Shown here piece after piece: positions 9,231-54,540 of a DNA stretch of 64,000 bases. Below the pieces are notes generated by a model that searched no databases, was not told the DNA's origin, and saw nothing but the letters and a program-made list of their open reading frames with translations. Position numbers and translations under genes: made by a program. The stretch's first letter is position 1. Each line of letters starts with the position of its first letter. Origin of the DNA: a virus; IMG/VR virus record IMGVR_UViG_3300045988_062257. One strand, written 5' to 3'.

Positions 9231-9254
9231 TGAAAGCAAATGAGAAATTTGCAA

Positions 9255-9300: not shown

Positions 9301-9315
9301 CTTCTTCCCTTGTAT

Positions 9316-9495: not shown

Positions 9496-9498
9496 AAT

Positions 9499-14634: not shown

Positions 14635-14865
14635 ATGGGTAAGTTTTCAGAGCTTAATCTAAAGTGGTATGAAGAGGAAGATTTAGAAGACCTTGAGGGA
14701 GAATATCCGGGTCTTTTCGATAAGTCAAGAGAGGAACTAGATAAATTCGCTACTGCGTTATACTGGAAAGCACAGAACCTAATTGAGGAAGCAAATAGCC
14801 TTGAGAGTAAGGCTGATGTTATTCGAACCTATCTGGATGCGACAGAAAGAGAGGAAGTGTTGTAA
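14635..14865 (+). CDS. Hypothetical acidic protein
   Basis: Start coupled to the previous stop. Confidence 0.4.
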   Translation: MGKFSELNLKWYEEEDLEDLEGEYPGLFDKSREELDKFATALYWKAQNLIEEANSLESKADVIRTYLDATEREEVL

Positions 14866-14867
14866 TA

Positions 14868-15170
14868 ATGGGAAAAATTACTCGTCATAGCAAAGAGCGC
14901 ATTGTTCAGAGAACTGAGGGATGTGAGAGTTTCGCAGAAGCTAAGAAGTTGGCTAAACAAGCTAAGCGATCTGGCGCGACTATCAATCAGTTCCAGAAGT
15001 TCCCTAAGTTCTTCTCGTATCTTCAGAACAAAAGAGATCAGACCAATACCTGCTCTATTAGAGTGTACCGAGGTAACATTTATATCTGGCGTGGCAAAGA
15101 TACACTAATTACCGCACACCCTATCCCCGAAAGATATATTAAAGAAATGGAGGCTATTGGTGATGACTGA
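14868..15170 (+). CDS. Hypothetical basic protein
   Basis: Start 2 nt after the previous stop. Confidence 0.4.
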   Translation: MGKITRHSKERIVQRTEGCESFAEAKKLAKQAKRSGATINQFQKFPKFFSYLQNKRDQTNTCSIRVYRGNIYIWRGKDTLITAHPIPERYIKEMEAIGDD

Positions 15171-15960: not shown

Positions 15961-16747
15961 GAACTGGCTTGTTACAGGAGACACTCATGGTCAAGTCCTT
16001 GAAAGACTTAGTCATATTGGATATTCTCCTGATGAAACTGCATTGATTATTCTTGGCGATATGGGGCTTAATTTCTATCTGAATAAGACCGATCGCAAGA
16101 ATAAAAAGAATGTTAATAATACAGGCTTCCGCATTTACGCGGTTCGCGGAAACCATGAAGAGCGTCCAGAAAACCTTTCCATGGAGCAAATGTATGACGA
16201 AGACGTCGATGGCGGCGTCTATTATGAGCCAGAATTTCCGAATATCAGATACCTTTTTGATGGAGAGAGCTACAACATTCATGACTACTCTGTCCTTGTT
16301 ATCGGCGGGGCATATTCCGTAGATAAGTGGTATCGACTTGGAGGCCGTCCAGAAGATACAAATAGCTGGACCGGTTGGTTCAAGGACGAACAGCTAACCA
16401 AAAAGGAAATGGATGAAATTGGCGCATGGGTTGAAGGTAAGCGTTATGATTTTGTCCTAACCCATACTTGTCCCATTTCTTGGGAGCCAAGAGATTTGTT
16501 TCTCTCTGGTCTTGACCAATCAAAAGTAGATAAGAGTATGGAACTTTGGCTTGAGGATATCAAAAGCAAAGTTGATTGGGAAGTATGGCTCTGCGGCCAC
16601 TACCATGACGATCGGTTAATCCGACCTGGCGCAGAAATGTATTTCCATGACATTGAATCTCTTGATACAATTTGGGAGCGCTGGCAAGACCCTGAGAACA
16701 TCGACTGGTGGTTGAAGAAGGATCCAAACTACTATATGGGTAGATAA
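15953..16747 (+). CDS. Calcineurin-like metallophosphoesterase
   Basis: Motifs GDTHG, GDMG, GNHE, and HYHDD-like C-terminal His. Confidence 0.55.
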   Translation: MIKNWLVTGDTHGQVLERLSHIGYSPDETALIILGDMGLNFYLNKTDRKNKKNVNNTGFRIYAVRGNHEERPENLSMEQMYDEDVDGGVYYEPEFPNIRYLFDGESYNIHDYSVLVIGGAYSVDKWYRLGGRPEDTNSWTGWFKDEQLTKKEMDEIGAWVEGKRYDFVLTHTCPISWEPRDLFLSGLDQSKVDKSMELWLEDIKSKVDWEVWLCGHYHDDRLIRPGAEMYFHDIESLDTIWERWQDPENIDWWLKKDPNYYMGR

Positions 16748-16795
16748 AAAAATAAAGGGTCGAAGTATTAAATACTTCGACCCTTTTTAATTAAA
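16748..16795. terminator. Bidirectional Rho-independent terminator (AAAGGGTCGAAGTATT-taaa-TACTTCGACCCTTT)
   Basis: Perfect palindrome flanked by A-run on one side and T-run on the other. Separates converging + and - strand genes. Confidence 0.65.
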
Positions 16796-17048
16796 AATCA
16801 TGCCATTCAATTTTCTGCGGACTTCCAGTTCCACCGATCTTTTGATAGCCATTTGCTGCGGTATATTGCAAGATGGCATCTTCTACAAAGTAGATTTTGC
16901 CTTCTTCGCCTACCGCAGGAAGCTCAGAACGCTGTGTTACTTCAATGCTTCCACCATTTTTAATCTGTTCCTTAACCCATTCTTTGAGTTTTGTATCATA
17001 ATGAGACAAAAGGTTAAGGTCAATAAGATTTTCTAATGCAACTGCCAT
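16791..17048 (-). CDS. Hypothetical protein (minus strand)
   Basis: RBS AAGGAGTG upstream on the minus strand. Converges on the bidirectional terminator. Confidence 0.45.
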   Translation of the reverse strand: MAVALENLIDLNLLSHYDTKLKEWVKEQIKNGGSIEVTQRSELPAVGEEGKIYFVEDAILQYTAANGYQKIGGTGSPQKIEWHDF

Positions 17049-17061
17049 TAGGAATCACTCC

Positions 17062-17331
17062 TTAACCAAATAATTTATCAATGTCTGCAATGTCGGCTAA
17101 GCTGCCTTCAACGACAACTGTCCCACCGCCTCCGCCGCCACTTGACTTTTGTTTAATCCATTGACCCTGGTTGTTCAATCTATAAATGCTAGAAGTTGCG
17201 ACAACCTCGCAAGTGCTGCCAGGGGTAAAGTGGGTAGGAAGGGTGGCAATTTCGTCTTCGGTATCAACTAGTAGACGAACTAGATAGGGAGTGATTTTCT
17301 CCCCACTCATCATCTGAGAATACATAGACAA
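17062..17331 (-). CDS. Hypothetical Gly-rich protein (minus strand)
   Basis: Co-oriented with 16791-17048. Contains a GGGGGG run. Confidence 0.4.
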   Translation of the reverse strand: MSMYSQMMSGEKITPYLVRLLVDTEDEIATLPTHFTPGSTCEVVATSSIYRLNNQGQWIKQKSSGGGGGGTVVVEGSLADIADIDKLFG

Positions 17332-17419
17332 TCTGCCCCTTTCATTATTTTCTCTATTGTTATCTAAAAAATGATAATGAGTGTATATCAGCTTTTGGCC
17401 AAAATAAATACCTATTTGA

Positions 17420-17471
17420 AAAATATCATAAAATATATTATAATATATATAGAAAGTTAAGGAAGAAAGAA
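17420..17471 (+). promoter_or_regulatory. Promoter motif plus leader (TATATTATAATATATATAGAAAGTTAAGGAAG)
   Basis: Instance of the repeated motif before the gene at 17472. Confidence 0.4.
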
Positions 17472-17876
17472 GTGATAACCATTCGTATCTGGCACCAAAA
17501 ACTTATTCCCTATCTTGATCGTCAGCGTCTCTTGGGTCAGCATCGAGAATGCGCGGCTCTAAGAGGAAAAGGTTGGGGCAAGAAGCACGCAACTGTAGAC
17601 TACGCTTTTACACATGACCCTGCTCTACTTGTCGCTTATCATTATCTGATTATGGACGAGATGGAGAAGCGTGGTTACCATCCAGATAAGATTTGGAAGA
17701 ATCCTAACTGGCGAGGAAGTACATTAGGTGAGGGTACATGGATTTCTGATTCTAAGTATGAAGAGATTTATGAATCTGCTAAGCAGGGTAATATGATTTA
17801 CCCTGAACACGACGATGCTTATTTGCAGGAGTGTATCAATATTCTGCATGAAAAAGGTGTCGACATTACGATGTAA
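17472..17876 (+). CDS. Pyrimidine-dimer DNA glycosylase-like (T4 endonuclease V family?)
   Basis: N-terminal pattern IRIWHQKLIPYLDRQRLLGQHRECAAL resembles the endoV N-terminus (L..L.DQHL..EYRE). Non-ATG start in the ORF table. Confidence 0.35.
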   Translation: MITIRIWHQKLIPYLDRQRLLGQHRECAALRGKGWGKKHATVDYAFTHDPALLVAYHYLIMDEMEKRGYHPDKIWKNPNWRGSTLGEGTWISDSKYEEIYESAKQGNMIYPEHDDAYLQECINILHEKGVDITM

Positions 17877-17896
17877 CAAGAGAGGAGATAACTATA

Positions 17897-18066
17897 TGAT
17901 GCCCTATGTTTGTGATGGAACTATCGTAAGAGTGAGAGACGGTCGCACTGGTAAAGTCATCTGCGTTGATAGAAACACCAAGATTGCAGTAGTCTATACT
18001 GGTAAGGCATCTATCTCCACAAAGATTGAAAATCTTGAGGTCATTTCCTACAAGGAGGTTAAGTAA
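17897..18066 (+). CDS. Hypothetical small protein
   Basis: RBS AGAGGAG before ATG 17897. Listed within ORF 17815-18066. Confidence 0.35.
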
Positions 18067-18123
18067 ATGCCCGGAAGAGTAAGAGTTCATCGCCCTTCTC
18101 CCGAAAGAGAGGGAGAATATAAG

Positions 18124-18360
18124 ATGCGTATTCTTAGCATCTTGAATGAGTCCGAGGAAGCCATGACGATTGATGAAATCAAAAGCCAAGATATGATTCT
18201 TCAGCCGTTGACTTCTCAGAAAATGGCAAGACTTATCGGCAATCTGATTGAAATGGGACTTGTGCGGAAGGGCAAGTCTAAGAGCCTTGGACGCATGGTT
18301 TATAAGGCTGTAGCAGTCATGATTAGTCAAGGCTACGATGTGAATGAAGAGGAGGAATAA
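18124..18360 (+). CDS. Winged-helix-like small protein
   Basis: RBS GAGAGGGAG before ATG 18124 (ORF table starts upstream at 18067). C-terminal wHTH-like pattern. Confidence 0.35.
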   Translation: MRILSILNESEEAMTIDEIKSQDMILQPLTSQKMARLIGNLIEMGLVRKGKSKSLGRMVYKAVAVMISQGYDVNEEEE

Positions 18361-18363
18361 GAT

Positions 18364-19632
18364 ATGGCATATTTTGGTTTGGTAACTAAGTTGCAGAACT
18401 GCCGTAAGGACGAGAACTCTGATCGTCTGTATCTGGCAGATTGCTTCAATGAGGGCGTTATCGTCGGCCCCGATATGAAGACCGGTGATCTGGTTCTGTA
18501 CCTGCCGACCGATGGTCAGGTAGATCATTGGTTTGGCGATAAGTTTACCTTGTTCCGTAAGAATGAGGATGGTACTGAGCAGGGCGGTTATCTGGAGAAT
18601 AACGGTCATGTGCGGGCTATCAAGCTTCGTGGCAACGAGAGTTCTGGCATCGTCATCTCTCTTGAGCGTGTCTATGAGACTTTCGGCAATCAGCATTGGA
18701 AGAACGGAGATAAGATAAATACTATCAATGGTAAGGAGTTCTGCCGTAAGTATATCCCTAAGCGTAAGACTCCGAGCACCACTCCTAAGACTTCCTACAA
18801 GGGTCGTAAGGCAGAGGGTATTACCTATCCTGAGTTTGCAATGCATACTGACACCGAGCAGCTTGCATACAATCTGGATAAGTTCCGTCCCGGCGATGAG
18901 CTGAATATGACTCTTAAGATGCATGGCACTTCTCAGCGTTCCATGAACACCTTTGCTGAGCTACCCAATGGCTTCTTCCGTCGTCTATTCCATATGAAGA
19001 AGCGTCTGAAGCAGGCTTATGTTCTCGGTACGCGCCGTTGTGTTGTAACTGAGAACTCTCAGGGCTACTACGGCAATGATCTATTCCGTATGTCTCACCA
19101 TGAGGCATTGAAACCCCATCTTGATCCTGGTATGGAGGTCTTTTACGAGGTAGTAGGGTACTACGGTCCCTCTGAGAATGATACCATCATGCCTATCGGC
19201 GATAACTCCAAGCTAAAAGATAAGGCTTTCCAAAAGCTGTTCGGTAAAAAGTCTATCTTCTCCTACGGCTGCAAGCCCGGTGAGTCCCATATGTGGATTT
19301 ATCGCATCACTTCCGAGAATGGTCAGCGTGAGTGGACTCCTGACGAGATTACTGCTTGGTGCGAGAAGCATGGCTTTAATCGTGTCCCGGTGATTGAGAA
19401 CTTCAAGTTCACTACTGCCGAGGACCTGCAGGACCGCATTAACAAGTATTTCGAGGACTTGGTCGATCCTATCGGTAAAACTCATGTTAAAGAGGGCGTT
19501 GTAGTTCGTATCGTCAACCGCCGCGCCTTTACTGCTTTCAAGTCTAAGACTTACGAGTTCAAGGTGCTTGAGGGTATTATCAAAGAGACTGAGACTGCTC
19601 CAGATATGGAGGAGGCACAGGACGAAGTATGA
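18364..19632 (+). CDS. ATP-dependent RNA ligase, Rnl2-like
   Basis: Nucleotidyltransferase motif I KMHGTS (Rnl2 KIHGTN-like), motif IV EGVVVR, motif V FKSK. Confidence 0.5.
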   Translation: MAYFGLVTKLQNCRKDENSDRLYLADCFNEGVIVGPDMKTGDLVLYLPTDGQVDHWFGDKFTLFRKNEDGTEQGGYLENNGHVRAIKLRGNESSGIVISLERVYETFGNQHWKNGDKINTINGKEFCRKYIPKRKTPSTTPKTSYKGRKAEGITYPEFAMHTDTEQLAYNLDKFRPGDELNMTLKMHGTSQRSMNTFAELPNGFFRRLFHMKKRLKQAYVLGTRRCVVTENSQGYYGNDLFRMSHHEALKPHLDPGMEVFYEVVGYYGPSENDTIMPIGDNSKLKDKAFQKLFGKKSIFSYGCKPGESHMWIYRITSENGQREWTPDEITAWCEKHGFNRVPVIENFKFTTAEDLQDRINKYFEDLVDPIGKTHVKEGVVVRIVNRRAFTAFKSKTYEFKVLEGIIKETETAPDMEEAQDEV

Positions 19633-19792
19633 GAATTATCTTCTACGGTCTGTGGCTGACTACTATTGTTGTTGGTTCTATTCTAGGAACAATAGTTCCT
19701 CCTTCAGCCGTCTATCTTACCGGTTTTACGACAGGAACTCTCTCTTTAATACTCTTACACTTTGCCTCTCAATTTAAGGATTTAGGAGTATA
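19630..19792 (+). CDS. Small membrane protein (about 54 aa)
   Basis: ATG overlaps the previous stop. Two hydrophobic helices. Ends at TAG just before the next gene. Coordinates approximate. Confidence 0.3.
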
Positions 19793-19796
19793 GATT

Positions 19797-20153
19797 ATGC
19801 TTTATTGGGGTATTATCCTTTTTATTTGTATCATCGTTTTTGTTGTTTTATTTAAGGCACTCAATAATAGCTGTTGGTACTGGGGAATGGCAGCATTTGT
19901 TATTGCATTGGCAATGCTTTTAAGTACCTGCAAGTATAGAAGCTTTTTAGCTTCTTTTGAAATTCAACGCACAATTATTACGCAAATGTCACAGTCATAC
20001 CATTTTAACGACAATACACTTATCTATATAGCGGATATGATTGACGCTAATCAAGAGTTAGCGGAAATTCAAGGTAGTAAGAAAGCTTGGGGCGGATGGA
20101 GTATGTACCCCGATAGTGTCATGGATGTCATTCCCATCGGATTAGAAAACTAA
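19797..20153 (+). CDS. Membrane protein
   Basis: Two N-terminal TM helices. Confidence 0.4.
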   Translation: MLYWGIILFICIIVFVVLFKALNNSCWYWGMAAFVIALAMLLSTCKYRSFLASFEIQRTIITQMSQSYHFNDNTLIYIADMIDANQELAEIQGSKKAWGGWSMYPDSVMDVIPIGLEN

Positions 20154-20251: not shown

Positions 20252-20776
20252 ATGCAGAAAATTCTAATTGTAATTGATATGCAGAATGATTTCGTAACAG
20301 GGCCTCTCGGCTCTAAAGCCGCGCAAGTAGCTGCGAAGAATATTGCTGCGCATATCAATGAATATGACACGGTAATTTTCACCCGCGATACCCATGGCCC
20401 AGATTATCTGGATACATTGGAAGGAAAGTTCCTACCGATTCCGCATTGTATCAAGGATACTGAAGGATGGGAGATTATCCCTGAACTCGTTAATGGAGTT
20501 TCCAAGGTGAAGAATCTCTACGTCGTCGATAAGGATACCTTTGGCACTTTCATTTGGGGAAGTATGTCTGTAAATATGTCAGTAGATGAAGATACTACCA
20601 TTGAAATTTGCGGCGTATGCACCGACATTTGTGTGGTATCCAATGCTCTTATCATGCGGGCTTTTCGTCCTAATCAGAAGATCAAGTGTCACAAAGACTG
20701 GTGCGCTGGTACGAGTGTTGCAGCACATGAAGCAGCTCTTAAAGTTATGGAATCTTGCCAGATTGAAGTTATTTAA
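20252..20776 (+). CDS. Isochorismatase-family hydrolase (nicotinamidase PncA-like)
   Basis: N-terminal ILIVIDMQNDF and catalytic Cys region CGVCTDICV. Confidence 0.55.
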   Translation: MQKILIVIDMQNDFVTGPLGSKAAQVAAKNIAAHINEYDTVIFTRDTHGPDYLDTLEGKFLPIPHCIKDTEGWEIIPELVNGVSKVKNLYVVDKDTFGTFIWGSMSVNMSVDEDTTIEICGVCTDICVVSNALIMRAFRPNQKIKCHKDWCAGTSVAAHEAALKVMESCQIEVI

Positions 20777-20787
20777 GGAGGCTTAAT

Positions 20788-21621
20788 ATGCTATTTGTTC
20801 GCTCTAGAATGGGTTTTGAGGATAAAACCTGGATGCCAGTTAGTCAAGATCGATTTCCAGATGGAACGCTGCACATGACTGCTCCTAAAGATTCCTTATT
20901 TAAGAACTCTAATGTCGATATCTACTGGAAGTATAACAATGATGCAGAATTGTTCTCGCTAATTTGCTTGCGGAAACACTATGCCGATTGTAAAAATGTC
21001 ACACTTTATATGCCCTATTGTCCGCACGCCCGCATGGATAGAGTTAAGGGCACAACCGATGTATTCACTCTCAAGAGTTTTGCAGATGTTATCAACTCTC
21101 TTGATTTCACCAAGGTGGTTATCTATGATGCCCATAGTAATGTAACACCTGCGCTAATTGATAGAGTGGAAAATCGTCCGAATACTATGTTCGTTGAACG
21201 CACTTTACTCGATATCGGAGACGATAATCTTGTCATGTATTATCCCGACGAAGGGGCTATGAAGAGATATTCTGAGAATTGCCAGCGCCCTTATAGCTTT
21301 GGCATGAAGCGCAGAAATTGGGAGACTGGTAAAATTCTCGGTGTAGATATTATCAATAGAGAGATTGTAAAAGACAAGAATATCCTCATTGTTGATGATA
21401 TTTGTTCTAAGGGCGGTACATTCTACCATTCAGCGCAGGCTCTGAAAGATGCGGGCGCCGCAGATATTTATCTCTTCATCACTCATTGCGAAGATTCTAT
21501 TTTCAAAGGCAGCTTACTCGAAAGTGGCTTGATTAAGCACATCTACACCACTGATTCGTTGGGCCATGACATTCTCTTTAACAAACAGATTACGGTTTAC
21601 AACCTGCGAGAAATCATTTAA
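20788..21621 (+). CDS. PRPP-synthetase-like phosphoribosyl pyrophosphokinase (Prs or ADPR-PP synthetase-like)
   Basis: PRPP-binding signature ILIVDDICSKGGT. About 277 aa. Sits next to a NAMPT-family gene. Confidence 0.5.
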   Translation: MLFVRSRMGFEDKTWMPVSQDRFPDGTLHMTAPKDSLFKNSNVDIYWKYNNDAELFSLICLRKHYADCKNVTLYMPYCPHARMDRVKGTTDVFTLKSFADVINSLDFTKVVIYDAHSNVTPALIDRVENRPNTMFVERTLLDIGDDNLVMYYPDEGAMKRYSENCQRPYSFGMKRRNWETGKILGVDIINREIVKDKNILIVDDICSKGGTFYHSAQALKDAGAADIYLFITHCEDSIFKGSLLESGLIKHIYTTDSLGHDILFNKQITVYNLREII

Positions 21622-21630
21622 GGAAAGGAA

Positions 21631-23361
21631 TTGTATACAATGTTTAATCCTCTTTTAATGATTGACTTTTATAAGAGTACCCATCATGAACAGTACCCCG
21701 TTGGACTAACTAAGATGGTTAGCTACTACACTCCTCGTATGAGCCGCCTTAAGGATGTAGACAAGGTAACTTTGTTTGGTCTACAGGCATTTATTAAGGA
21801 GTATCTCATTGAGGGTTTTAACGATAACTTCTTTAATCGTCCAGAAGAGGAAGTTGTCGCAGAGTACGAGCGAGTTCTCAACGCTACTCTCGGTCCAGGT
21901 GCATTTCAGTCTGAGAAAATTAGAGATTTGCATCGACTGGGCTATCTTCCTCTAGAAATCTCTGCTGTCCCTGAAGGCACCAGAACCGCGATCGGCGTCC
22001 CGCAGATCGAGATTACCAACACTCACCCCAACTTCGTTTGGTTGGTGAATACTATTGAGACCCTTCTGTCTGCCACCATGTGGCATACGCAGGTATCCGC
22101 GGAAGTTGGCTATCGGTATCGCCAGATTGTGCAGAAATACCGTGACATGAGTTGCGACGACAATGTTCCTGTAGCTCGACTGCTTGGTGATTTCTCTATG
22201 CGCGGTCAGCAATCCGCGGAATCCGCAATTAAGAGTTCTGCTGGCTGGTGTCTATCTTTCCTGAACACCGCTACTGTACCTGCAATTATGTGGCTTGAGA
22301 AGAACTATAATTGCGACTGCACTAAGGAACCTGTTGCTTACGGCGCAATCTCTACCGAGCATAGTGTTATGTGCTCTAACTACGCGATTGATGGTAATGA
22401 AATTACCCACATCCGCAGACTTCTGACAGAGATTTATCCTCACCACAATTTTTCTATGGTGTCTGATAGTTACGACTATTGGAATCTCGTAGAGAAAATT
22501 CTCCCGCACTTGAAAAATGAAATCATGGCACATGATGGGTGTCTTTCTATTCGTGGCGATAGTGGCGACCCAGTTGAGATTATCGCGGGTAAGGAAATCA
22601 TCTATCTCAATGAGCAGGAGTGGGAGAACCTAAAAGACGATCCAAGTGAGTTCATTGCTGAGTTCTTTGAACGAGACTTAGAGAAAGACACTCAGCAGAT
22701 TTTCTCTTACAATGGAGAGTATGCTCTTGCTGACATTACAGTCGAATGGACTAATGAGCGCGGTGCTTGGACTGATTGCAAATATTGGTACATTGAGGGT
22801 TATAATGTCAAACTGATTGAAAATTATGAGCTTACTTCTGAGGATAAGGGAACTGTCTGGTGTTTGTGGGATATTTTCGGTGGAACTATCAATAGCAAGG
22901 GCTATAAGGTCCTTGATCCTCACATTAAAGCTATCTATGGTGATAGCATTACTCCTCAGCGGTGCACTCGCATTTATCAGCGCCTTGTGAATAATGGATT
23001 TGCCATTAACAATGTTTCTCTTGGCGTTGGCTCTTTCTCCTTTATGTGTCTTGAAGAAGATGGCAGCTTCAATCCTTACACTCGTGATACCTTTGGTATC
23101 GCTGTTAAGGCAACTTACGCGGAAAATGCAAATGGTAAGCCTATTATGATTTACAAGCAGCCCAAGGCTCTCAGTTGGAAGAAGTCTCAGAAAGGCTGCT
23201 GTCGGATAGCTCTTGATGGTCAGAGCTATGAAGATGAACTGACTTGGGCAGATCATCTTGGTGAAGACAATCTACTCCAGCCTGTGTTCCGTGATGGTAG
23301 TATGATTAAGGAGGACAGTCTGCACGATATTCGCGCACGGCTATATAAGGAGGGCTTTTAA
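21631..23361 (+). CDS. Nicotinamide phosphoribosyltransferase family protein (NadV/NAMPT-like)
   Basis: 576 aa. NAMPT/NAPRT-family architecture with conserved GDS and DSYD-like motifs. Confidence 0.55.
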   Translation: MYTMFNPLLMIDFYKSTHHEQYPVGLTKMVSYYTPRMSRLKDVDKVTLFGLQAFIKEYLIEGFNDNFFNRPEEEVVAEYERVLNATLGPGAFQSEKIRDLHRLGYLPLEISAVPEGTRTAIGVPQIEITNTHPNFVWLVNTIETLLSATMWHTQVSAEVGYRYRQIVQKYRDMSCDDNVPVARLLGDFSMRGQQSAESAIKSSAGWCLSFLNTATVPAIMWLEKNYNCDCTKEPVAYGAISTEHSVMCSNYAIDGNEITHIRRLLTEIYPHHNFSMVSDSYDYWNLVEKILPHLKNEIMAHDGCLSIRGDSGDPVEIIAGKEIIYLNEQEWENLKDDPSEFIAEFFERDLEKDTQQIFSYNGEYALADITVEWTNERGAWTDCKYWYIEGYNVKLIENYELTSEDKGTVWCLWDIFGGTINSKGYKVLDPHIKAIYGDSITPQRCTRIYQRLVNNGFAINNVSLGVGSFSFMCLEEDGSFNPYTRDTFGIAVKATYAENANGKPIMIYKQPKALSWKKSQKGCCRIALDGQSYEDELTWADHLGEDNLLQPVFRDGSMIKEDSLHDIRARLYKEGF

Positions 23362-23786
23362 TGAACGATCCATTCCTTGACATCAATAGAGTAGTTGATA
23401 GACTCTATAATGAATATAAGCGGTATGGTGATATTATTATCGCCTTCGACTTTGATTACACGGTTCATAATTTCCGTGACGAAGATTATACTTACGAGTG
23501 TGTGAGTGAAATGTTGCGGAAATGGCAACCCTATGCTAAGCTCGTGGTATTTAGTGCTTCTCAAGAAGAGCGATATCCCTATATTGCAGATTATCTCAAT
23601 CAGAATAACATTCCTTTTGATGCAATCAATGAGGATGTTCTGACTGAAAAACGTAAGCCAACGAGAAAACTGTATTATAATATCTTGCTTGATGATAGAG
23701 CAGGACTTGGTAGCGCTTACACGGCATTAGATATGCTATATAGTAAACTAGAAGCAGAAGGAGAACTGAAAACATGGAGAATGTAA
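23361..23786 (+). CDS. HAD-like hydrolase (possible nucleotidase)
   Basis: DxDxT motif FDFDYTV near the N-terminus. Confidence 0.35.
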   Translation: MNDPFLDINRVVDRLYNEYKRYGDIIIAFDFDYTVHNFRDEDYTYECVSEMLRKWQPYAKLVVFSASQEERYPYIADYLNQNNIPFDAINEDVLTEKRKPTRKLYYNILLDDRAGLGSAYTALDMLYSKLEAEGELKTWRM

Positions 23787-24514
23787 TTACCAATATCACC
23801 AATTGGATTAAGGATTACTTCGTAAATAATGGTCCAGATTGCAAAGCTATCATTGGTATTTCTGGTGGCAAAGATAGCACTGTAACTGCGGCTCTGCTTG
23901 TTAAAGCACTCGGAAAGAATAGGGTTATTGGTGTAAAAATGCCACAGGGCAATCAGCATGACATTAATGTTGCCAATAAAGTAATTGACTATCTCGGTAT
24001 ACGGAGTTACGAAATCAATATTGGCGATGTCTGTGAATCCTTATATCATGCTATTGATGAGGGGTATGATTTTGATAGTACAGTTAAAAACAATCCCCAA
24101 GTTACTTCTAACTCTCCTGCCCGCGTCCGCATGACAGTGCTTTATGCTATTGCTGCGCTTGAACATGGTAGAGTAGCAAACACTTGTAATAGGAGCGAGG
24201 ATTTTATTGGCTATTCCACTAAATTCGGAGACGCTGCTGGCGATTTCTCCGTGCTGTCTGAATATACAGTTTCAGAAGTGCGGCAGATTGGTAAAGCACT
24301 TGGTATCCCTAATGAGTTTATCTTTAAAGCGCCAGAAGACGGTCTTAGTGGCAAGACAGATGAAGATAATCTTGGATTTACCTATGGTGAACTCGATCAC
24401 TTCCTACTGCGAGGACATTATCCATCTTATGATGTTTATAAAAACATTGAAGAGCGGCACAAGCGCAATCTTCATAAGATAAATCCAATGCCTTCTTGTC
24501 CTAGATATTACTAA
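23774..24514 (+). CDS. nadE: NH3-dependent NAD+ synthetase
   Basis: PP-loop GISGGKDST plus NadE-like length and motif arrangement. Confidence 0.6.
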   Translation: MENVITNITNWIKDYFVNNGPDCKAIIGISGGKDSTVTAALLVKALGKNRVIGVKMPQGNQHDINVANKVIDYLGIRSYEINIGDVCESLYHAIDEGYDFDSTVKNNPQVTSNSPARVRMTVLYAIAALEHGRVANTCNRSEDFIGYSTKFGDAAGDFSVLSEYTVSEVRQIGKALGIPNEFIFKAPEDGLSGKTDEDNLGFTYGELDHFLLRGHYPSYDVYKNIEERHKRNLHKINPMPSCPRYY

Positions 24515-27111: not shown

Positions 27112-27948
27112 TTGAAAATGCCTATTCATGATGAACTTGGAACTCGGATGAAAGAGTTCTATGAAAGCGTTCCTAAGACTAAGTTAATGCGCCGTACCCC
27201 AGTTGCAATTCGCATTGACGGTAAAGCTTTCCACACCTTTACCCGTGGTTTCAGTAAGCCTTTTGACGATGTGCTGATTAGTGCGATGCAGGATACCATG
27301 AAATATCTCTGTGAAAACATTCAAGGGTGCGTATTAGGGTATACCCAAAGTGATGAAATCACTCTTATCCTTGTTGATTACAAGCGGCTCAACAGCTCTG
27401 CTTGGTTTGATTATGAAGTGCAGAAGATGTGTTCTATTGCCGCTTCTATGGCGACGATGGCTTTCAACAAAGCATTTAATGAAGGAGTTCGGCATAGGAA
27501 TCTAGATTATTATGCCGCTCATGCGACTATGGATAACCCTTACCCACAAGATGATTTGGGCCAGACTTATGCAGTAAAAGCACAAATGGGCGCCATGTTT
27601 GATGCTCGTTGTTTCAATATCCCCAAGGAAGAGGTCACCAACCTTGTCTATTGGCGTCAGCTAGATGCAACCCGCAATTCTATTCAGATGGTAGGTCAGG
27701 CTAATTTCTCTCACAAAGAACTCCAAGGTAAATCTTGTGAGAAAATCAAAGAGATGTTAATCACGGAGAAAGGGATTTCTTGGGAAGACTTTCATCCTAT
27801 GTATAAGCATGGCTCTTGTTGCATCAAGGTTACAACTGAGACCGATGGTGTAACTCGCTCTAGCTGGGAAATTGATAAAAATATTCCGCTATTTGTCGGA
27901 GAGGGACGTGAGTATATCGAATCTCTAATCCAATGTCAGGAGGAATAA
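27112..27948 (+). CDS. Thg1-like protein (tRNA-His guanylyltransferase family, 3'-5' polymerase)
   Basis: N-terminal RIDGKAFHTFTRG signature. About 278 aa. Confidence 0.5.
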   Translation: MKMPIHDELGTRMKEFYESVPKTKLMRRTPVAIRIDGKAFHTFTRGFSKPFDDVLISAMQDTMKYLCENIQGCVLGYTQSDEITLILVDYKRLNSSAWFDYEVQKMCSIAASMATMAFNKAFNEGVRHRNLDYYAAHATMDNPYPQDDLGQTYAVKAQMGAMFDARCFNIPKEEVTNLVYWRQLDATRNSIQMVGQANFSHKELQGKSCEKIKEMLITEKGISWEDFHPMYKHGSCCIKVTTETDGVTRSSWEIDKNIPLFVGEGREYIESLIQCQEE

Positions 27949-28430
27949 CAATGGCTGAATGGCAAAAAGGAACAGGATGGAAAGAATGGTTTGAAATTAC
28001 CGGCGCGGATGGAGTAGATTTCCACCCAATTGGTCAAGATCCGCGTAAAAACCCAGCCATTGTGTTGCAGTCTAATACCAAGGAAGATATTCTAGAAAGA
28101 AAAGTCGGCTATCCAAAGAGTAATTATTCATTTTGGAAAAAAATCAATGGCAAAAAATATTATATCTCTCTTGACAATCCAATTGAGGTAACTCATAAAG
28201 TTACTATAGATGCAGAAGTAGATTGGGTTACTGGTTATTTACGAGGCGGATATTACCATGGAGAACTTGAACTATCTGAGGAAGATTATAAAACTTTTAA
28301 GAAAGATCCATTAAATTTTTTAGAAAATCATATTGATTTATGGGTAGATTGGCCATTTGAAATAAACGATTGCGAGATTGAGGACATTGGTGAACTTTCA
28401 CAAGTCTATTTTACTGATCAAACTAATTAA
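27933..28430 (+). CDS. Hypothetical protein
   Basis: Overlaps upstream gene end. Confidence 0.4.
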   Translation: MSGGITMAEWQKGTGWKEWFEITGADGVDFHPIGQDPRKNPAIVLQSNTKEDILERKVGYPKSNYSFWKKINGKKYYISLDNPIEVTHKVTIDAEVDWVTGYLRGGYYHGELELSEEDYKTFKKDPLNFLENHIDLWVDWPFEINDCEIEDIGELSQVYFTDQTN

Positions 28431-28435
28431 ATAAA

Positions 28436-28477
28436 AATCAAAAGGTTCTAATTCTTAGAACCTTTTGATTTTTTTAT
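28436..28477 (+). terminator. Rho-independent terminator (AATCAAAAGGTTCTAA-ttc-TTAGAACCTTTTGATT plus T7)
   Basis: 16-bp stem and T-run. Confidence 0.65.
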
Positions 28478-28527
28478 AAATATATATTATAATATATATA
28501 GAAAGTTAAGAAAGGAAGTTATGAAGT
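28478..28527 (+). promoter_or_regulatory. Promoter motif plus leader (ATATATATTATAATATATATAGAAAGTTAAGAAAGGAAG), consensus-like copy
   Basis: Best match to the motif repeated about 17 times in the window. Confidence 0.45.
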
Positions 28528-28683
28528 ATGGTCACTAAAAATGACGCTGTTAAAGCGTTGGAAACCCTTGATGGTATTATTGATAGTCTGGATTGGAGCG
28601 GCGTATTCATTGATGACGAGCTAAATGACATTGAAAAATCAATGGCTATCATTCAGCAGTTTATTGAACAGGAGGAAAAGTAA
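28528..28683 (+). CDS. Hypothetical small acidic protein (51 aa)
   Basis: Follows the promoter/RBS motif. Below the ORF-table cutoff. Confidence 0.25.
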   Translation: MVTKNDAVKALETLDGIIDSLDWSGVFIDDELNDIEKSMAIIQQFIEQEEK

Positions 28684-28961
28684 TGACTCATTCGCATGGT
28701 ATGTTAGGTTATCACGATAGTCCAAGATGCAAGTCCGACCTTTGGTCTCCTGTCCCATGTTCTTGTGCTCAAGAGAATCGAGCTTTTTCTCCTTTTATAG
28801 AGCATCAGCAGGACCTTGAAGATGCTGTTAATTTGCTCATTGAAGCAAGAGTAAAAGGTGAGAACTGCTCTATTCAGTTTGAAACCGAGGTATCTGATGA
28901 AGATATTGCTTGGGTGATGGCTGAAGTTGAACGGAGGTTAGCTAATGCCAGAATACCTTGA
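28683..28961 (+). CDS. Hypothetical protein
   Basis: Start coupled to the previous stop. Confidence 0.4.
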   Translation: MTHSHGMLGYHDSPRCKSDLWSPVPCSCAQENRAFSPFIEHQQDLEDAVNLLIEARVKGENCSIQFETEVSDEDIAWVMAEVERRLANARIP

Positions 28962-29712
28962 CCGTGCTGTGGCTGTATCGCAAGCCAATTTCATACATGG
29001 TCATTGGGACGATGTGTACGTGAGTGCTGCTGCACTGATGGCAATACCAGCTGCAGATGTTATTCCAGTAACTCACAGTAAGTGGGATATTGAAGTTGGC
29101 ATGAATTATCATACGGAACGAATTTGTCCGGTATGTAAGAAAGTAATCAAGAGTAACTTCTGGGAGTATTGTTCACATTGTGGGGCAAAAATGGATGGAG
29201 GCGAAAAAATGACGACTGAACTGAAAGTAATGGTTGGCATCCCCGGTAGTGGTAAATCTACTTGGGTTAAGCAAGAGGTAGCTCGAATCGAGGAAGAACA
29301 TCGTACCACTTGTGTAGTTTCCAGAGATTTCGCGCGGCAGTCCATTTTGACCGATCGTGATAGCTACTTTGACAAAGAAGTTGAAGTATTCGACGAATTT
29401 GTCCGGCAGATTAACGAAGCTATGGAACTTGGTATTGATGTTGTGTTTGCGGATGCGACTCATATTAGCCCCGCTTCTCGTGCAAAGCTCCTTGGTCGGT
29501 TGATCGCAGATCCGCATACCAAATTGACCTTTGAAGTCATTGATGTCCCTGTTGAAACCGCTCTTGAGCGTAATGCTCAGCGGACTGGCGTTGCCAGAAT
29601 CCCCGATTCCGCAATTAAGAAGATGAAGAAGGGATTTTCTATTCCTACTGAAAAAGAGTTTCCTAAAACCAATTGGGGATTTTCTAATATCGAGGTGCGT
29701 GTGCATCATTAA
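28945..29712 (+). CDS. Polynucleotide-kinase-like P-loop kinase with N-terminal zinc ribbon
   Basis: CPVCKK...CSHCG zinc ribbon, then Walker A GIPGSGKST and PNK-kinase-like downstream region. Confidence 0.45.
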   Translation: MPEYLDRAVAVSQANFIHGHWDDVYVSAAALMAIPAADVIPVTHSKWDIEVGMNYHTERICPVCKKVIKSNFWEYCSHCGAKMDGGEKMTTELKVMVGIPGSGKSTWVKQEVARIEEEHRTTCVVSRDFARQSILTDRDSYFDKEVEVFDEFVRQINEAMELGIDVVFADATHISPASRAKLLGRLIADPHTKLTFEVIDVPVETALERNAQRTGVARIPDSAIKKMKKGFSIPTEKEFPKTNWGFSNIEVRVHH

Positions 29713-29801
29713 GAATAAGTTTTTCAATGACTATCAAAGATGAGGTCAGAAGTAATAAAAGAGTATGTAAGAATTTCCATTTATAAATGGAAGATGATAA
29801 A

Positions 29802-30506
29802 ATGTATTTCATTTATAAAATCGAAAATCTGATTAACCATAAAATCTATATTGGTTCCAGTGACTAGTCACGAGGATTTACAACAAGGTGGTATGAACAT
29901 TAGCAAAATGCTCGTCTCGAATCTCGCGCAGGATATGAATATCCATTATATCGAGCCATAAGAAAATATGGTATAGAGAATTTTGATTTTCAAATCTTAA
30001 TAAAAGATATTCAAACTCCAGAAGAAAGATATAAATTAGAGCATGATGCAATCATTGAATATAATAGCTTAACCTCTTAGCATGGATATAATCAAACTCT
30101 AAACACAGAATATCCGTTTGATGATCCAGAAGTACGAGCTAAATTGGCAACACCCATTTGTGCCATTTCAGAAACAAGTGGAGAAAAGAAATTTTTTCCT
30201 ACAATAACTGCCGCAGCTCATGAGTTAGGATCTGATAGAGCTAGTATTAGAAAATGCGCATCCGGTAGTACCAGATATAAAACAGTAAAGGGATTTATAT
30301 TTAGGGAATATAATCCAGAAACACTGGAAATCATTCCAAATAACATCCCCATAGAAGAAGCCAGCAAGTTAATTGAAATCAATGGAGAATTTCACAATTT
30401 CAAAGATTGGTGTTCCATTTATAATATTTCAAAAAATTCGGTATACAAGCGTATGAAAAATGGAATGTCGAGAATTGAAGCCATTACAACACCCAAAAGG
30501 AAGTGA
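29802..30506 (+). CDS. GIY-YIG homing endonuclease with NUMOD-like C-terminal DNA-binding domain; three in-frame TAG
   Basis: YFIYKIENLINHKIYIGSSD*SRGFTTRWYEH*QNAR (GIY...YIG...R..H) and C-terminal AAAHELGSDRASIRKC (NUMOD1-like). The ORF table lists only the C-terminal part (30144-30506), in frame with ATG 29802. Confidence 0.6.
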
Positions 30507-34926: not shown

Positions 34927-34958
34927 AGGTCGAGGGAGAAATCCCTCGACCTATTTTT
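34927..34958 (+). terminator. Rho-independent terminator (AGGTCGAGGGA-gaaa-TCCCTCGACCT plus T-run)
   Basis: 11-bp stem followed by ATTTTTAT. Confidence 0.6.
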
Positions 34959-34982
34959 ATACCCTAATTGGAGGTGAGGTCA

Positions 34983-36389
34983 TTGGCGGATAATGCTCAA
35001 GTTATTTGGGATTATCTCAAATCAAAAGGATTAAGTAACTGCGGCGCCGCAGGTCTAATGGGGAATCTATTCGCGGAAAGTGGACTTATTCCAACTAACT
35101 TATAGAACTCATATGAGAGCAAGTTAGGAATGAACGATGCCTCGTATACTGCGGCTGTTGATAATGGCTCCTATACCAATTTCATGCATGATTCTGCAGG
35201 ATATGGTTTAGCTCAATGGACATATTGGAGCCGCAAGCAAGGTCTGTTTTAGCTGTGCAAAAGTCGAGGAAAGTCTATTGGTGACTTGAACACTCAACTA
35301 GATTTTTTATATCAGGAACTAACTACAAGTTATTCCTAGCTATTAAAAATCTTGAAGACTACCTCATCTGTTGAAGAAGCATCTAATTTAGTGGTCACTC
35401 AATTTGAAAGACCGGCAGACCAAAGCTTTGATACACTAAAACAACGTGCTTTGTATAGTCAACGTTACTTCAATACTTATTCAACGCAAAAGGAGGAAAT
35501 GGCTAAGATGAAATATTCAAACGCCAATCAACCATTGGTTTGCATGATGACTAATAGTACCTGTTATAAGCAAACCCGTAAGATGGATATTAAAGGTGTA
35601 CTCTGGCATAGTACAGGCGCAAATAATAAAACTATTAAACGCTATGTCCAACCATCTGAGAGTGATAAAAATTATCAATCTCTGATTGCTAAAATTGGTA
35701 AAAATACCAGTAGAACCGATTGGAATCATAGCTCGTAGCAAGCTGGTGTAAACGCTTGGATTGGTACTCTTGCTGATGGAAGCGTAGCCGCGGTACAAAC
35801 GTTGCCTTGGAATTATAGACCTTGGGGCTGCGGCTCAGGTCCTAAAGGTAGTTGTAATACCGGATGGATTCAATTTGAAATTTGCGAAGACAATCTAAGT
35901 GATCCTAACTACTTCGCTAAAGTCTACAAAGAAGCTTGTGAATTGACAGCTTATTTATGTAAAACATATAATATCAATCCAAATGGTTTTGTAAATGTAA
36001 ATGGCGTAACCGTCCCAACTATTCTCTGCCATCAAGATAGTTATCAGCTGGGCCTCGGCAGTAATCATGCCGATGTATACCACTGGTTCAAGAAATATGG
36101 CAAAGATATGGCAACTGTCCGCAAAGATGTTGCTGCTTTAATGCAGTCTAAAGTTATCGAGGAGGATGATGAAGACATGACTCAAGAGAAATTCAACGAA
36201 ATGATGAATGTATATTTAAGCCAGCTCGCTGCTCAACCAGTTACTTGGGAACAAGATGCGATGACTTGGGCACAAGCTAATGGCTTAATCAATGGCAATG
36301 AAAAAGGCCAATTAATGCCAAAGCGTTTTATGACTCGCGGCGAATTTGCAGCCGTTCTAAAACGTTATGCTGAAAAGAGTGGTCAATAA
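34983..36389 (+). CDS. Endolysin: phage tail-lysozyme-like N-terminal domain plus amidase-like C-terminal domain; four in-frame TAG
   Basis: RBS GGAGGTGAGG then TTG 34983. GLMGNLFAESGLIPTNL*NSYE...GYGLAQWTYWSRKQGLF*LC matches the phage lysozyme-like family motif. Two further TAGs join ORFs 35352-35738 and 35802-36389 (same frame, offset 450 nt). Confidence 0.6.
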
Positions 36390-36712
36390 TGACTCGTCAA
36401 ACAAGAGGAAAAAGAAGACACAATTAGAAGAGAGAATTTTCTAAACAACTTATTTGCGATATTCGCTCTTTATTGTGGATTGTAACTATCTCTGGTATTG
36501 CTCTTGCTTTCTATTGCGTACATCTTGGCTATTTAGGCACTCTTCCATGGATTAGTGCATTAGTAGGATTACCCTGGTCTGCGCATGGTATTGTTTGTTC
36601 TTTTTACTTAAATATGAGTAAATCTGATCACCGCAAGGGTGGAATTACCTATGATTTAGCTATGTGTGAACAACAATAGCAACAAATAATCGAGGATGAA
36701 GCAACCATCTAA
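36389..36712 (+). CDS. Holin-like two-TM membrane protein; two in-frame TAG
   Basis: ATG overlaps the lysin stop (TAATG). Basic N-terminus MTRQTRGKRRHN*KRE then two TM helices. ORF table shows only 36473-36679. Reading through the terminal TAG extends it 11 codons to TAA. Confidence 0.4.
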
Positions 36713-36716: not shown

Positions 36717-36760
36717 AAAGGCTTAGTAGATTTAATAATCTACTAAGCCTTTTTCTTATT
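36717..36760 (+). terminator. Rho-independent terminator (AAAGGCTTAGTAGATT-taataa-TCTACTAAGCCTTT)
   Basis: Long stem followed by TTCTTATTT. The promoter motif follows. Confidence 0.55.
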
Positions 36761-36852
36761 TAAGCTTGATTTTTTATAAAATATATGGTATTATATATTC
36801 AGAAATAAAAAAGGAGAACTTAAAAATAAATGAAGTATTTGAGGTATAGCGA

Positions 36853-43480: not shown

Positions 43481-44398
43481 ATGATTTATTATATATTATC
43501 AGGCTTGGTTATTCTTGCGTTAATAGGATATGTTTTATATCTCCGCAATAATCGGCTTTAGGTAGTATTGATAAATAAAGAAAGACAAGAAGAAAATAAA
43601 CGTATTGAACAAGATATTGCATTGAAATAGAGAGAATTAGCAAAAGTAAAAGAAGATATTGTATCACATAATGAAATTGTCAATTCTTTAAACGATACTG
43701 CGAATAAGTTGCGGGAAAGCGCTGAATAGCGAGCAGAAGAGAGCGCTAAAGCTCAATTTGAAAAGAAAAGTAAAGAGCTTGATGAAACATATCAAGCTAA
43801 AGAAAAATATCATTTAGCAGAACTTCAATAGATAACTAATCAAATTTCACATTAGCAAGATAAACTCCATGAATTGGAAGCTAAATAGTTATCTTATATC
43901 TAGGCTCAATAGCGCCAAGAAGCGATTGCCGCAGATTAGGATTACTACCGTCTTGCTATTGATGAATTTAGTTTGAATGATATTACTTTATTACGTGATT
44001 TGCAAATTCACTTTGTGAAAAAGGAAATCATTGATAAAGTAATATGGGAGACCTATTATCGTCCTGCGTATGATATTCTTATGACGCATCTATTTGCCAC
44101 TAATAAAGGTAAAGTATGCGGTATCTATAAGATTACCGATCTAATAACTGGTTAGGCTTATATTGGTTAGTCTGTTGATATTAAAGAGCGTTTTAGACAG
44201 CACATTAAAACCTCTTTAGCATACGGACCTGCGACTAATAAGTTATATTAGGCGATGCAAAAATCTGGTCAATATAATTTTATATTTGAGATTTTGGAAG
44301 AAGTGCCTAGAGATTAGTTAAATGAACGAGAGACTTATTGGATTGAGTTCTATAAGACTAAAGAACTAGGTATGAATGGAACTCGTGGAGGTTCATAA
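43481..44398 (+). CDS. TM helix plus Gln-rich coiled coil plus GIY-YIG nuclease domain; 16 in-frame TAG
   Basis: With TAG read as Gln: N-terminal TM (IYYILSGLVILALIGYVLYL), coiled coil AELQQITNQISHQQDKLHELEAKQ, C-terminal GIYKITDLITGQAYIGQSVDIKERFRQH...YWIEFYKTKELGMN. The ORF table captures only 43973-44155. Confidence 0.5.
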
Positions 44399-53766: not shown

Positions 53767-54492
53767 ATGAGTCGTTTTATTAAAGTTATCACAAGTTTAA
53801 TCATTATATTATCTTTATGCGGATGTGGCTATGGCCTAGCGGTCACTGCTCAAGCTTATTCCGTGCCGTATAACGAAACTGTTAGTTATACTCTTGATGA
53901 TATGGATACATTGATTGAGCTTATTGCGGAACAAATCTCGAATATGAACGCCGCACATCAAATGGCTGAAGCTGCTAGATAGCTAGGCTATAGTGAAGAC
54001 CATGACGTCATTGTATTAGCAAAACAAGAACACGCTGATGCAAATGCTTTGAGAATGAAATATCAAAGCGTATATGACCAACTCATGGAACATTGGCATC
54101 AAAAGGAAGAAGAGTACCCAACAGCTACTTATATATGGACCTACTTCAAAGATCTGGGCTACAGTAACCAAGTTTGCGCTGGCATTCTTGGTAATATAAT
54201 GGCTGAAACTGGAGGTAACACATTAGACATTCAAGCCACGATTTCTGGTAACGGATATTATGGTATATGTCAATGGAATAAAGCCTACTCAAATGTATGG
54301 GGAGCCTCGTTAGAAGAGCAATGCGACTATCTGCGAGATACTATTGAGTACGAGTTCGATACATTCGGTTATGTTTATAAGAGAAACTTTGATTACAATA
54401 GTTTCTTAGATTTAACCGACATTAAAAGCGCCGCTCTAGCATTTGCTAAATGCTATGAGAGATGCGGTTCTGGGAGCTATTATACGCGATAG
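53767..54492 (+). CDS. Lipoprotein with phage lysozyme-like (tail-lysozyme family) domain; one in-frame TAG
   Basis: Signal peptide plus lipobox LSLCGC. After TAG 53980-53982 the frame continues (54049 in frame, offset 282 nt) into ICAGILGNIMAETGG...GYYGICQWN, paralogous to the endolysin N-domain. Confidence 0.45.
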
Positions 54493-54540
54493 CAAAATGC
54501 TATTGCTGCATATAATTACTTCATAAGTTAAAATAAAGAA

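Follow-up and report, generated by a model that had tools for sequence, protein, structure and literature searches.

An Endolysin and Holin-like Gene Pair with Six In-Frame TAG Codons in a Gut Phage of Probable Clostridial Host: Predicted Glutamine Decoding and a Likely Translational Lock

Introduction

Can a phage lysis cassette that is interrupted by six stop codons still yield its proteins and, if it can, do the stop codons govern when those proteins appear? The question is raised by the lysis region of IMG/VR virus record IMGVR_UViG_3300045988_062257, of which a stretch of 64,000 nucleotides (hereafter the window) was analyzed. An initial annotation, made from the sequence alone, had placed a two-domain endolysin gene and an overlapping holin-like gene at positions 34983-36712 of the + strand, and had proposed that decoding of their in-frame TAG (amber) codons times lysis. 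The coordinates of both genes hold on recheck.

Stop-recoded lysis genes are already known in gut phages, and the present cassette is a clean example rather than a new phenomenon. It was proposed by Borges et al. (bioRxiv 10.1101/2021.08.26.457843) that recoding locks or times lysis; lysis genes were found to be preferentially recoded in crAss-like and Agate phages, and the families with the most recoding include the lysozyme/amidase, the transmembrane protein of the lysis cassette, and a GIY-YIG endonuclease of the group-I-intron type. In crAss-like phages, decoding of TAG as glutamine (Gln) in late genes has been confirmed by metaproteomics (Peters et al. 2022, PMC9523058).

The reading favored here, which we consider likely with all of its parts taken jointly, is that the window derives from a tailed phage of about 147 kb that infects human-gut Clostridia, that TAG specifies Gln in part of its genes, and that the cassette comprises a three-domain endolysin and an overlapping small membrane protein whose six TAG codons would form a translational lock until the genetic code is switched.

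TAG as a Predicted Glutamine Codon

As had been annotated, four TAG codons lie in frame in the endolysin gene and two in the holin-like gene; those of the endolysin gene are codons 41, 90, 119, and 252 (Table 1). The 468-codon endolysin frame contains neither TAA nor TGA, and the Pfam domains run across its TAGs. The same usage extends to the whole window: among its 76 genes of at least 60 amino acids, 60 end in TAA, 16 in TGA, and none in TAG, while in-frame codons comprise 44 TAG and no TAA or TGA. Under genetic code 15, the coding density of the window is 93%, all on the + strand.

Relatives of the endolysin are abundant. When 5.8 billion proteins were searched, more than 100 homologues of full length came up that their sources had called with translation table 15; the contigs that carry them measure about 141-149 kb and stem from metagenomes of the human gut. 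The close relatives L001-L004 (relatives are denoted here by locus handles) encode one identical lysin protein (P0053) and keep all six TAGs of the cassette; L001 and L004 share about 94-95% nucleotide identity with the window over the compared stretches. Six further lineages encode lysins that are 64-73% identical to that of the window. Across the seven diverged lineages, the lysin carries 4, 7, 6, 4, 9, 12, and 6 TAGs, mostly at different positions.

The standard-code homologues used for comparison came from three Oscillospiraceae genomes, one metagenome-assembled genome (MAG) of Acutalibacteraceae, and Dulem virus 33. At the 17 alignment columns in which any recoded lysin has a TAG, Gln occupies 27 of the 74 standard-code cells, against a background of 4.4%, and glutamate is the next commonest residue. 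Gln is present in every aligned standard-code homologue at columns 41, 78, and 272, in 4/5 at column 297, and in 3/4 at column 86. Because the TAG positions align with Gln both in relatives and in standard-code homologues, the TAGs are predicted to be sense codons for Gln, as in genetic code 15. Read in this way, the predicted lysin peptide across TAG sites is, for example, ...GLIPTNLQNSYESK.

Cassette homologues in standard-code genomes contain no TAG. The Oscillospiraceae loci L020, L021, and L023 encode the same three-domain lysin at 55-64% identity without a single in-frame TAG, and a holin-like gene follows the lysin gene on its 3' side in L021. In Dulem virus 33 (PP511792), a 40-kb phage, a TAG-free pair that lies upstream of an integrase gene consists of an amidase-SLH module and a 107-residue membrane protein (65% identical to the holin-like protein of the window) with overlapping stop and start codons. 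As judged from sequence comparison, these TAG-free counterparts show the TAGs of the window to be a derived feature.

Source Genome and Probable Host

When the lysis region was compared by megablast with a collection of 50,697 phage records, no match was obtained; therefore, no close cultured or deposited relative of this region is present in that collection, and nowhere in it does the lysin have a match above 60% identity. For the DnaE-type polymerase of the window, identity is about 40% both to that of Enterococcus phage EF1, its closest cultured relative, and to those of SPbeta-like phages. The host is probably of Oscillospiraceae type, because Oscillospiraceae isolates and MAGs contain TAG-free homologues that span the whole lysin. 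These homologues, together with the Shine-Dalgarno (SD) motifs that were found, bear out the earlier description of a Firmicutes-type, SD-dependent genome.

The Endolysin Gene and Its Product

The lysin gene starts with TTG behind a GGAGG motif; the aligned start is ATG in L005 and L006, with the same GGAGG context ahead of it. Its product had been described as a two-domain protein. The lysozyme-like N-terminal domain and the amidase domain were both matched, but a third domain, a single SLH copy, is also present; the SLH match is graded weak in the precomputed hits of relatives. The protein matches PHROG endolysin families with E-values down to 7e-63, and aligns weakly to the solved PlyL amidase (1yb0) and to the lysozyme-like domain of phi29 gp13 (3csr). 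In the latter, GNMQSES lines up with GNLFAES of the window lysin (motif GN(L/M)xxES). The glutamate of this motif, E32, is invariant among the 13 homologues aligned, and we take it to be catalytic from what is described for gp13. In the amidase domain, H209, E299, H350, H362, and D364 are likewise invariant, and would be metal-binding or catalytic residues. Taken together, the domain matches and conserved residues identify the protein as a predicted PGRP-type N-acetylmuramoyl-L-alanine amidase endolysin, with lysozyme-like, zinc-amidase, and SLH wall-binding domains. It is strongly conserved, with relatives at 64-98% identity on hundreds of metagenomic contigs. The assignment of the locus as a lysis cassette is also upheld by the PHROG matches and by the recurrence, in three independent genomic contexts, of a small membrane gene directly 3' of a homologous amidase-type lysin gene.

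Within the lysin gene, at the boundary of the lysozyme-like and amidase domains, an SD motif precedes the ATG codon of Met176. Both elements are kept at the nucleotide level in four lineages, in which the encoded residues differ (KEEMAK, EGGNR, GGISG, and KEEITK), and the stand-alone amidase of Dulem virus 33 starts at the position aligned with Met176. Met176 is thus a probable in-frame internal start, which would give an amidase-SLH product. Endolysins with an in-frame internal start are known from Enterococcus phage Lys170 and Clostridium phage CD27L/CTP1L, in which the short product consists of nothing but the wall-binding domain. The window lysin likewise has a conserved SD motif and ATG at a domain boundary inside the endolysin frame; unlike those examples, its Met176 product is predicted to be amidase plus SLH and would still be blocked by TAG.

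A perfect 12/12 sigma-70 consensus also lies inside the lysin gene. It was considered as a separate promoter for the holin-like gene and set aside as a chance or lineage-specific occurrence, since it is found in this lineage only.

Table 1. Positions of the cassette, its TAG codons and flanking signals, and of recoded or decoding genes discussed in the text. Coordinates refer to the window unless stated otherwise.
Feature	Position	Strand	Details
Intrinsic-terminator-like hairpin, upstream	34927..34952	+	11 bp (7 GC), then T-run; between PhoH-like stop (34921) and lysin SD
SD motif GGAGG of lysin	34970..34974	+	8 nucleotides 5' of TTG
Endolysin gene	34983..36389	+	468 codons; TTG start; TAA stop at 36387-36389
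Phage_lysozyme2 (PF18013)	34989-35477	+	Residues 3-165; 109.5 bits, cut-off 28.2
Lysin codon 41 TAG	35103..35105	+	Gln at this column in every standard-code homologue and every other recoded lineage
Lysin codon 90 TAG	35250..35252	+	TAG common to L005/L019 lineage; K/N in other lineages; D/N/A in standard-code homologues
Lysin codon 119 TAG	35337..35339	+	TAG also in L006 and L007; N/S in other recoded lineages; S/G/A in standard-code homologues
Internal SD AGGAGG and ATG of Met176	35491..35510	+	SD at 35491-35496, then 11 nucleotides, then ATG at 35508-35510
Amidase_2 (PF01510)	35580-36035	+	Residues 200-351; 46.8 bits, cut-off 26
Lysin codon 252 TAG	35736..35738	+	Within amidase domain, upstream of presumed catalytic residues (conserved FEICE and ILCH motifs)
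Perfect TTGACA-18-TATAAT consensus	35943-35972	+	Inside lysin gene; only in this lineage, none in L005-L007
SLH (PF00395), single copy	36237-36350	+	Residues 419-456; 29.9 bits, cut-off 20.8
Holin-like gene	36389..36712	+	107 codons; ATG overlaps lysin TAA (TAATG); TAA at 36710-36712
Holin-like codon 13 TAG	36425..36427	+	5' of both hydrophobic segments; this lineage only
Holin-like codon 97 TAG	36677..36679	+	C-terminal tail; ten more codons, then TAA
Intrinsic-terminator-like hairpin, downstream	36717..36752	+	16 bp, then T-run; directly 3' of holin-like stop; kept in L005, L006, and L007
Promoter-like site TTGATT-17-TATTAT	36766..36794	+	TG upstream; for next unit (RNase H, gyrB, gyrA, ligase)
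Most recoded gene	43481-44398	+	13 TAGs, 50% of its Gln codons
HNH/His-Me-finger-like and GIY-YIG homing-endonuclease-type genes	2477-3004, 3293-3733, 29787-30506, 60531-60962	+	1-3 TAGs each
tRNA(CUA) of relative L008	L008 4173-4263		Window position 1 maps to L008 8188; 3.9-4.0 kb upstream of window start

The Holin-like Gene

The start of the holin-like gene on the lysin stop codon, the TAG at codon 13, and the 11-codon tail opened by the TAG at codon 97 (that TAG counted) were all found as annotated. Tails of similar length occur without a TAG at this position in L006, Dulem virus 33, and L021. The protein has a basic N-terminus, hydrophobic segments at about residues 26-48 and 52-74, and an acidic tail. 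It had been called a two-transmembrane protein; hydropathy supports one clear peak (residues 20-50), but the second segment (residues 52-74) is weakly hydrophobic. In the phage collection, its homologues are annotated as "hypothetical protein". These homologues overlap or nearly abut an amidase-type lysin gene directly on its 3' side in recoded relatives, in Dulem virus 33, and in Oscillospiraceae L021. In the seven lineages, the gene carries 2, 4, 1, 2, 0, 1, and 1 TAGs.

A Candidate Suppressor tRNA Upstream of the Window

No tRNA with a CUA anticodon was found by ARAGORN and Rfam among the 12 tRNA genes in the window (363-9585). IMG/VR loci that share the first sizeable open reading frame of the window were fetched, which reach 10 kb upstream of it. 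A 91-nucleotide tRNA(CUA) of identical sequence is present in all seven relatives that reach far enough upstream (92-95% nucleotide identity). It has U1 opposite U72, a G2-C71 pair, G73, and a D-arm close to that of phage tRNA-Gln(CUG). A scan of IMG/VR for its anticodon arm uncovered a family on contigs of 140-197 kb (L182-L230), in which U1 is constant, position 72 varies (U, C, or A), and position 73 is mostly G. Members share a 20-nucleotide extra arm with a 3-bp stem that covaries (UCC/GGA, GCC/GGC, ACC/GGU, CCA/UGG, and UCA/UGA); an extra arm of this kind is unusual for a Gln-type tRNA.

These features would be compatible with Gln identity, a judgement for which we take the identity elements of GlnRS and GatCAB to be established. 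An origin from a serine, leucine, or tyrosine tRNA, as a long extra arm might imply, was rejected in view of U1, G73, the D-arm resemblance to tRNA-Gln(CUG), and the alignment of TAG with Gln. No gene for RF2, GlnRS, or other code-change functions was found among the window proteins scanned (nine replication-region proteins left out) or in the precomputed annotations of relatives, and a YqeY-domain gene of relative L005 has no counterpart in the window. Accessory genes of this kind are optional in stop-recoded phages and occur in some clades only.

Two further genes of the array were noted. A tRNA-like gene at 4166-4239 (+), kept in most close relatives (L008, L010, L012-L014, and L017), has an 8-nucleotide anticodon loop (GUUAAAAG), for which ARAGORN proposes the four-base anticodon 'taaa', and scores 36 bits with the Rfam tRNA model. 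It could be a reader of quadruplets or frameshifts, or a degenerate tRNA; it is not an amber suppressor. In L008, a phage-encoded transfer-messenger RNA (6955-7300; Rfam 100 bits; tag peptide DNNYFDSHMAA) lies about 1 kb upstream of the window start, within an array of about 35 tRNA genes of which the window holds the last 12.

Flanking Terminators and Promoter

The cassette is bracketed by two terminator-like hairpins. The upstream hairpin occurs at the same place in L005, L006, and L007 with a different sequence in each lineage, and no sigma-70-like promoter was found between it and the lysin start. Beyond the downstream hairpin, a promoter-like site marks the downstream edge of the cassette, and its motif (GCTTGATTTTT...AAAATAT) recurs in each of the four lineages. 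The cassette thus appears to be transcriptionally insulated from its co-oriented, early-type neighbors (PhoH, RNase H, gyrase, and ligase). In L231 (644-1498) and L232 (645-1499), an extra gene with NAGPA and SPOR domains and 2-5 TAGs stands between the PhoH and lysin genes, and the recoded cassette there consists of three genes.

A Translational Lock and Its Alternatives

With host decoding only, translation stops after 40 residues from the lysin start, 76 from Met176, and 12 in the holin-like protein, and the Met176 product would end before the conserved FEICE and ILCH motifs. As the initial annotation had stated, the standard code would give only fragments. With stops this early, host-only decoding would make no active lysis protein, and so lysin synthesis would depend on the suppressor. 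Full-length products would be made once the Gln-like phage tRNA(CUA), from the big upstream tRNA array, outcompetes release factor 1 (RF1). Since each lysin requires four read-throughs, its yield would depend steeply on the suppressor level, and the terminators on both sides, with no recognizable sigma-70 promoter of the cassette itself, would add transcriptional insulation. The net outcome would be a translational lock, with no endolysin made before the code has switched. Such a lock may set the time of lysis, as an adaptive timer, or may act only as a safeguard against lysin that is produced too early or by leakage.

The earlier proposal that amber decoding times lysis therefore stands in part: the lysin is recoded in all seven lineages and its synthesis would be suppressor-dependent, but the holin-like gene is TAG-free or tail-only in four of the seven and endonuclease genes are more heavily recoded. 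Several observations weigh against a lysis-specific lock. The suppressor tRNA lies outside the window, and its presence in this genome is presumed from relatives. TAG is absent from the holin-like gene in L231 and confined to its C-terminal tail, past both hydrophobic segments, in L006, L232, and L233; therefore, a functional membrane protein could form without suppression. This protein matches no holin family in Pfam, PHROGs, or NCBIfam, and a putative holin function is suggested by its position and topology. In canonical lambda-type lysis, the holin sets the time and the cytoplasmic lysin is not rate-limiting; the lock, which appears constant for the lysin only, would thus act on a component that does not limit the rate.

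The distribution of TAG points in the same direction. As a share of Gln-type codons in window genes of at least 60 amino acids (Fisher test against all other genes), TAG accounts for 6/39 in the lysis pair (15%; p = 0.0017) and for 22/55 in five HNH/GIY-YIG genes (40%; p = 7.5e-16), compared with 16/564 (2.8%) in all other genes. The share is thus higher in the endonuclease genes than in the lysis pair, and the local enrichment of the lysis genes is not significant in lineage L007 (p = 0.40). Past the window end, where 10 kb was viewed, TAG occurs in many genes of relatives, on either strand. Recoding is thus neither special nor unique to the lysis genes.

The strongest competing explanation is that the TAGs are a neutral by-product. 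With an efficient Gln suppressor, CAG-to-TAG (and GAG-to-TAG) changes would be near-neutral in genes translated after it, and the cassette would be a late, low-demand unit. We regard this as a serious possibility that falls short of an even chance. It is favored by the fast turnover of TAG positions between lineages, few of which are shared; by a TAG count in the holin-like gene that spans 0 to 4; by the modest enrichment of the lysis pair and its loss of significance in L007; and by the many unrelated genes that carry TAG, which include homing-endonuclease types, a RecJ-like gene, NrdD, and a metallophosphatase within the window, and RuvC-like and recombinase genes beyond it. However, at least four TAGs occur in the lysin of every one of the seven lineages, whereas RNase H, gyrB, gyrA, and ligase, which flank the cassette, are free of TAG; PhoH is TAG-free in the window and has six TAGs in L005, the only lineage in which it is recoded. 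Moreover, in each of the four lineages checked, neither half of the lysin gene, 5' or 3' of the internal start, is free of TAG, and preferential recoding of lysis genes was statistically supported in two unrelated clades (Borges et al., bioRxiv 10.1101/2021.08.26.457843).

A more elaborate version of the lock is rather improbable in our view. According to it, the endolysin, with 4-12 TAGs and at least one per separately translatable half, would form a steep threshold device, in which the yield would scale with read-through efficiency raised to the number of TAGs. Terminator insulation would supply a second layer, and the resulting late switch would differ in mechanism from timing by a holin clock. 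Its driver would be the atypical Gln-type suppressor tRNA, with its U1, mismatched position 72, and covarying extra arm, and the charging of this tRNA might follow an unusual route should the Clostridial host lack GlnRS.

Far less support exists for the standard code with separately useful fragments, or for tRNA-independent read-through by host near-cognate tRNAs, and this pair of explanations is considered very improbable. The conserved SD motif and ATG at Met176 make lysin sub-products plausible. In addition, compared with CAA and CAG, sense TAGs are more often followed by C and more rarely by T, while true stops favor T (p = 0.018), a bias that weakly suggests contexts favoring read-through; C at +4 after TAG is generally held to be a weak terminator context in E. 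coli. However, the first TAG limits the product from the lysin start to 40 residues, the 76-residue product of Met176 falls short of both conserved motifs, and there is no SD-bearing start codon 3' of the later TAGs. With four spontaneous read-throughs in a row, the yield would be negligible, and relatives have up to 12 TAGs. Finally, decay of the lysis genes in a defective phage or prophage remnant, to which their fragmentation under table 11 might point, can practically be discounted, as the 468 + 107 codons contain no TAA, TGA, or frameshift, the protein is conserved at the identities given above, and TAG aligns with Gln, never serves as the terminal stop of a window gene, and has a cognate suppressor tRNA in relatives. 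Sequencing error was likewise rejected as a source of the TAGs, in view of the stop-codon counts and the alignment with Gln.

The translational lock on the endolysin, in its simpler form, accordingly remains the reading considered likely here.

Other Recoded Genes and Gene Sets

In the product of the most recoded gene of the window, an N-terminal transmembrane segment is followed by a long coiled coil, and the C-terminus carries a GIY-YIG domain that matches TIGR01453 (group I intron endonuclease) with 71.5 bits. The position of this gene is unchanged in every lineage, with 5-16 TAGs, and so it does not look freely mobile. The four other homing-endonuclease-type genes are interspersed with tRNA and early-type genes; of their matches, one to HNH exceeds the Pfam cut-off, and the other His-Me-finger match is weak. 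A second lysozyme-like gene (53767-54531, +) lies far from the cassette, between RecJ-like and helicase-like genes; it has a lipoprotein-type signal (…LSLCGCG), a C-terminal Phage_lysozyme2 match of 66 bits, and two TAGs.

Two gene sets on the + strand are TAG-free. One is of RNA-repair type (14147-19632 and 27112-29712), with cREC_REC, RlaP nucleotidyltransferase, metallophosphatase, RNA ligase, Thg1-like, and AAA_33 kinase genes. The other is a set for NAD salvage and synthesis (20252-24514), with isochorismatase-type nicotinamidase, PRPP-synthetase-like, NAPRTase, and NAD synthase genes.

In L099, a 98%-identical relative, a RuvC-like gene (14939-15418; nine TAGs) and a serine-recombinase-like gene (19407-20012; seven TAGs) lie just past the window end and are followed by TAG-bearing genes on the minus strand. 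The serine-recombinase-like gene hints at a temperate, SPbeta-like lifestyle.

Comparison with Known Recoded Phages

The phages described by Borges et al. resemble that of the window in their in-frame TAGs for Gln, a phage suppressor tRNA (seen in relatives of the window), and recoding in lysis and structural genes with replication genes largely spared. The same three kinds of genes carry TAGs in the window, namely the lysozyme/amidase, the lysis membrane protein, and the GIY-YIG endonuclease. With regard to the Agate clade, a genome of about 147 kb and a Firmicutes host fit its apparent size of 154 +/- 27 kb (apparent, because the list gives four sizes for five clades); this likeness is one of size, host phylum, and recoded gene kinds, the large terminase gene being outside the window. 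The Agate lineage analyzed in detail is recoded at TGA, whereas the window is recoded at TAG. Unlike the systems of Borges et al., the cassette of the window lies between early-type genes, is bracketed by terminators, and has the lysin rather than the membrane protein as its constantly recoded member.

A second comparison is offered by phAss-1, for which Phassvirus has been proposed (Babkin et al. 2023, PMC10607447), together with the "Caudoviricetes code 15 clade" of NCBI. These are human-gut phages of siphovirus type with genomes of about 133-138 kb and about 28-36 tRNA genes; the phAss-1 group is put at about 136 kb with about 36 tRNAs. In the phAss-1 group, tRNA-Sup(CTA) genes are present and TAG-to-Gln recoding affects about 28% of open reading frames, the holin included in some members (PMC10607447). 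phAss-1 is distantly related to Enterococcus phage EF1, which is also the nearest cultured relative of the window with respect to the DnaE-type polymerase. It is not a close relative, however: there is no nucleotide match in the lysis region, and lysin matches in the phage collection are at most 60% identical. In addition, phAss-1 has three suppressor genes, whereas relatives of the window have one in the 10 kb examined.

In the crAss-like phages, the code change is of the same kind and goes with a suppressor tRNA. These phages differ in their Bacteroidota hosts, podovirus lineage, and Gram-negative lysis set with a spanin, and show no sequence relationship to the window.

Significance

Gene calling on contigs of this kind needs table 15, since under another table the genes for the lysin, NrdD, and several endonucleases, as well as the RecJ-like gene, look broken. 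Beyond this, the locus provides a well-resolved natural case of stop-codon recoding in a Gram-positive-type lysis cassette, with standard-code counterparts that differ essentially by the TAGs. What it adds to the known examples are these counterparts, the lysin as the constant target, the bracketing by terminators, the internal start, and an unusual family of suppressor tRNAs. The pairing of TAG-bearing and TAG-free cassettes makes the hypothesis that recoding locks lysis genes testable with cloned genes. It also refines the published hypothesis, in that the endolysin is always recoded in the seven lineages, while the holin-like gene often is not.

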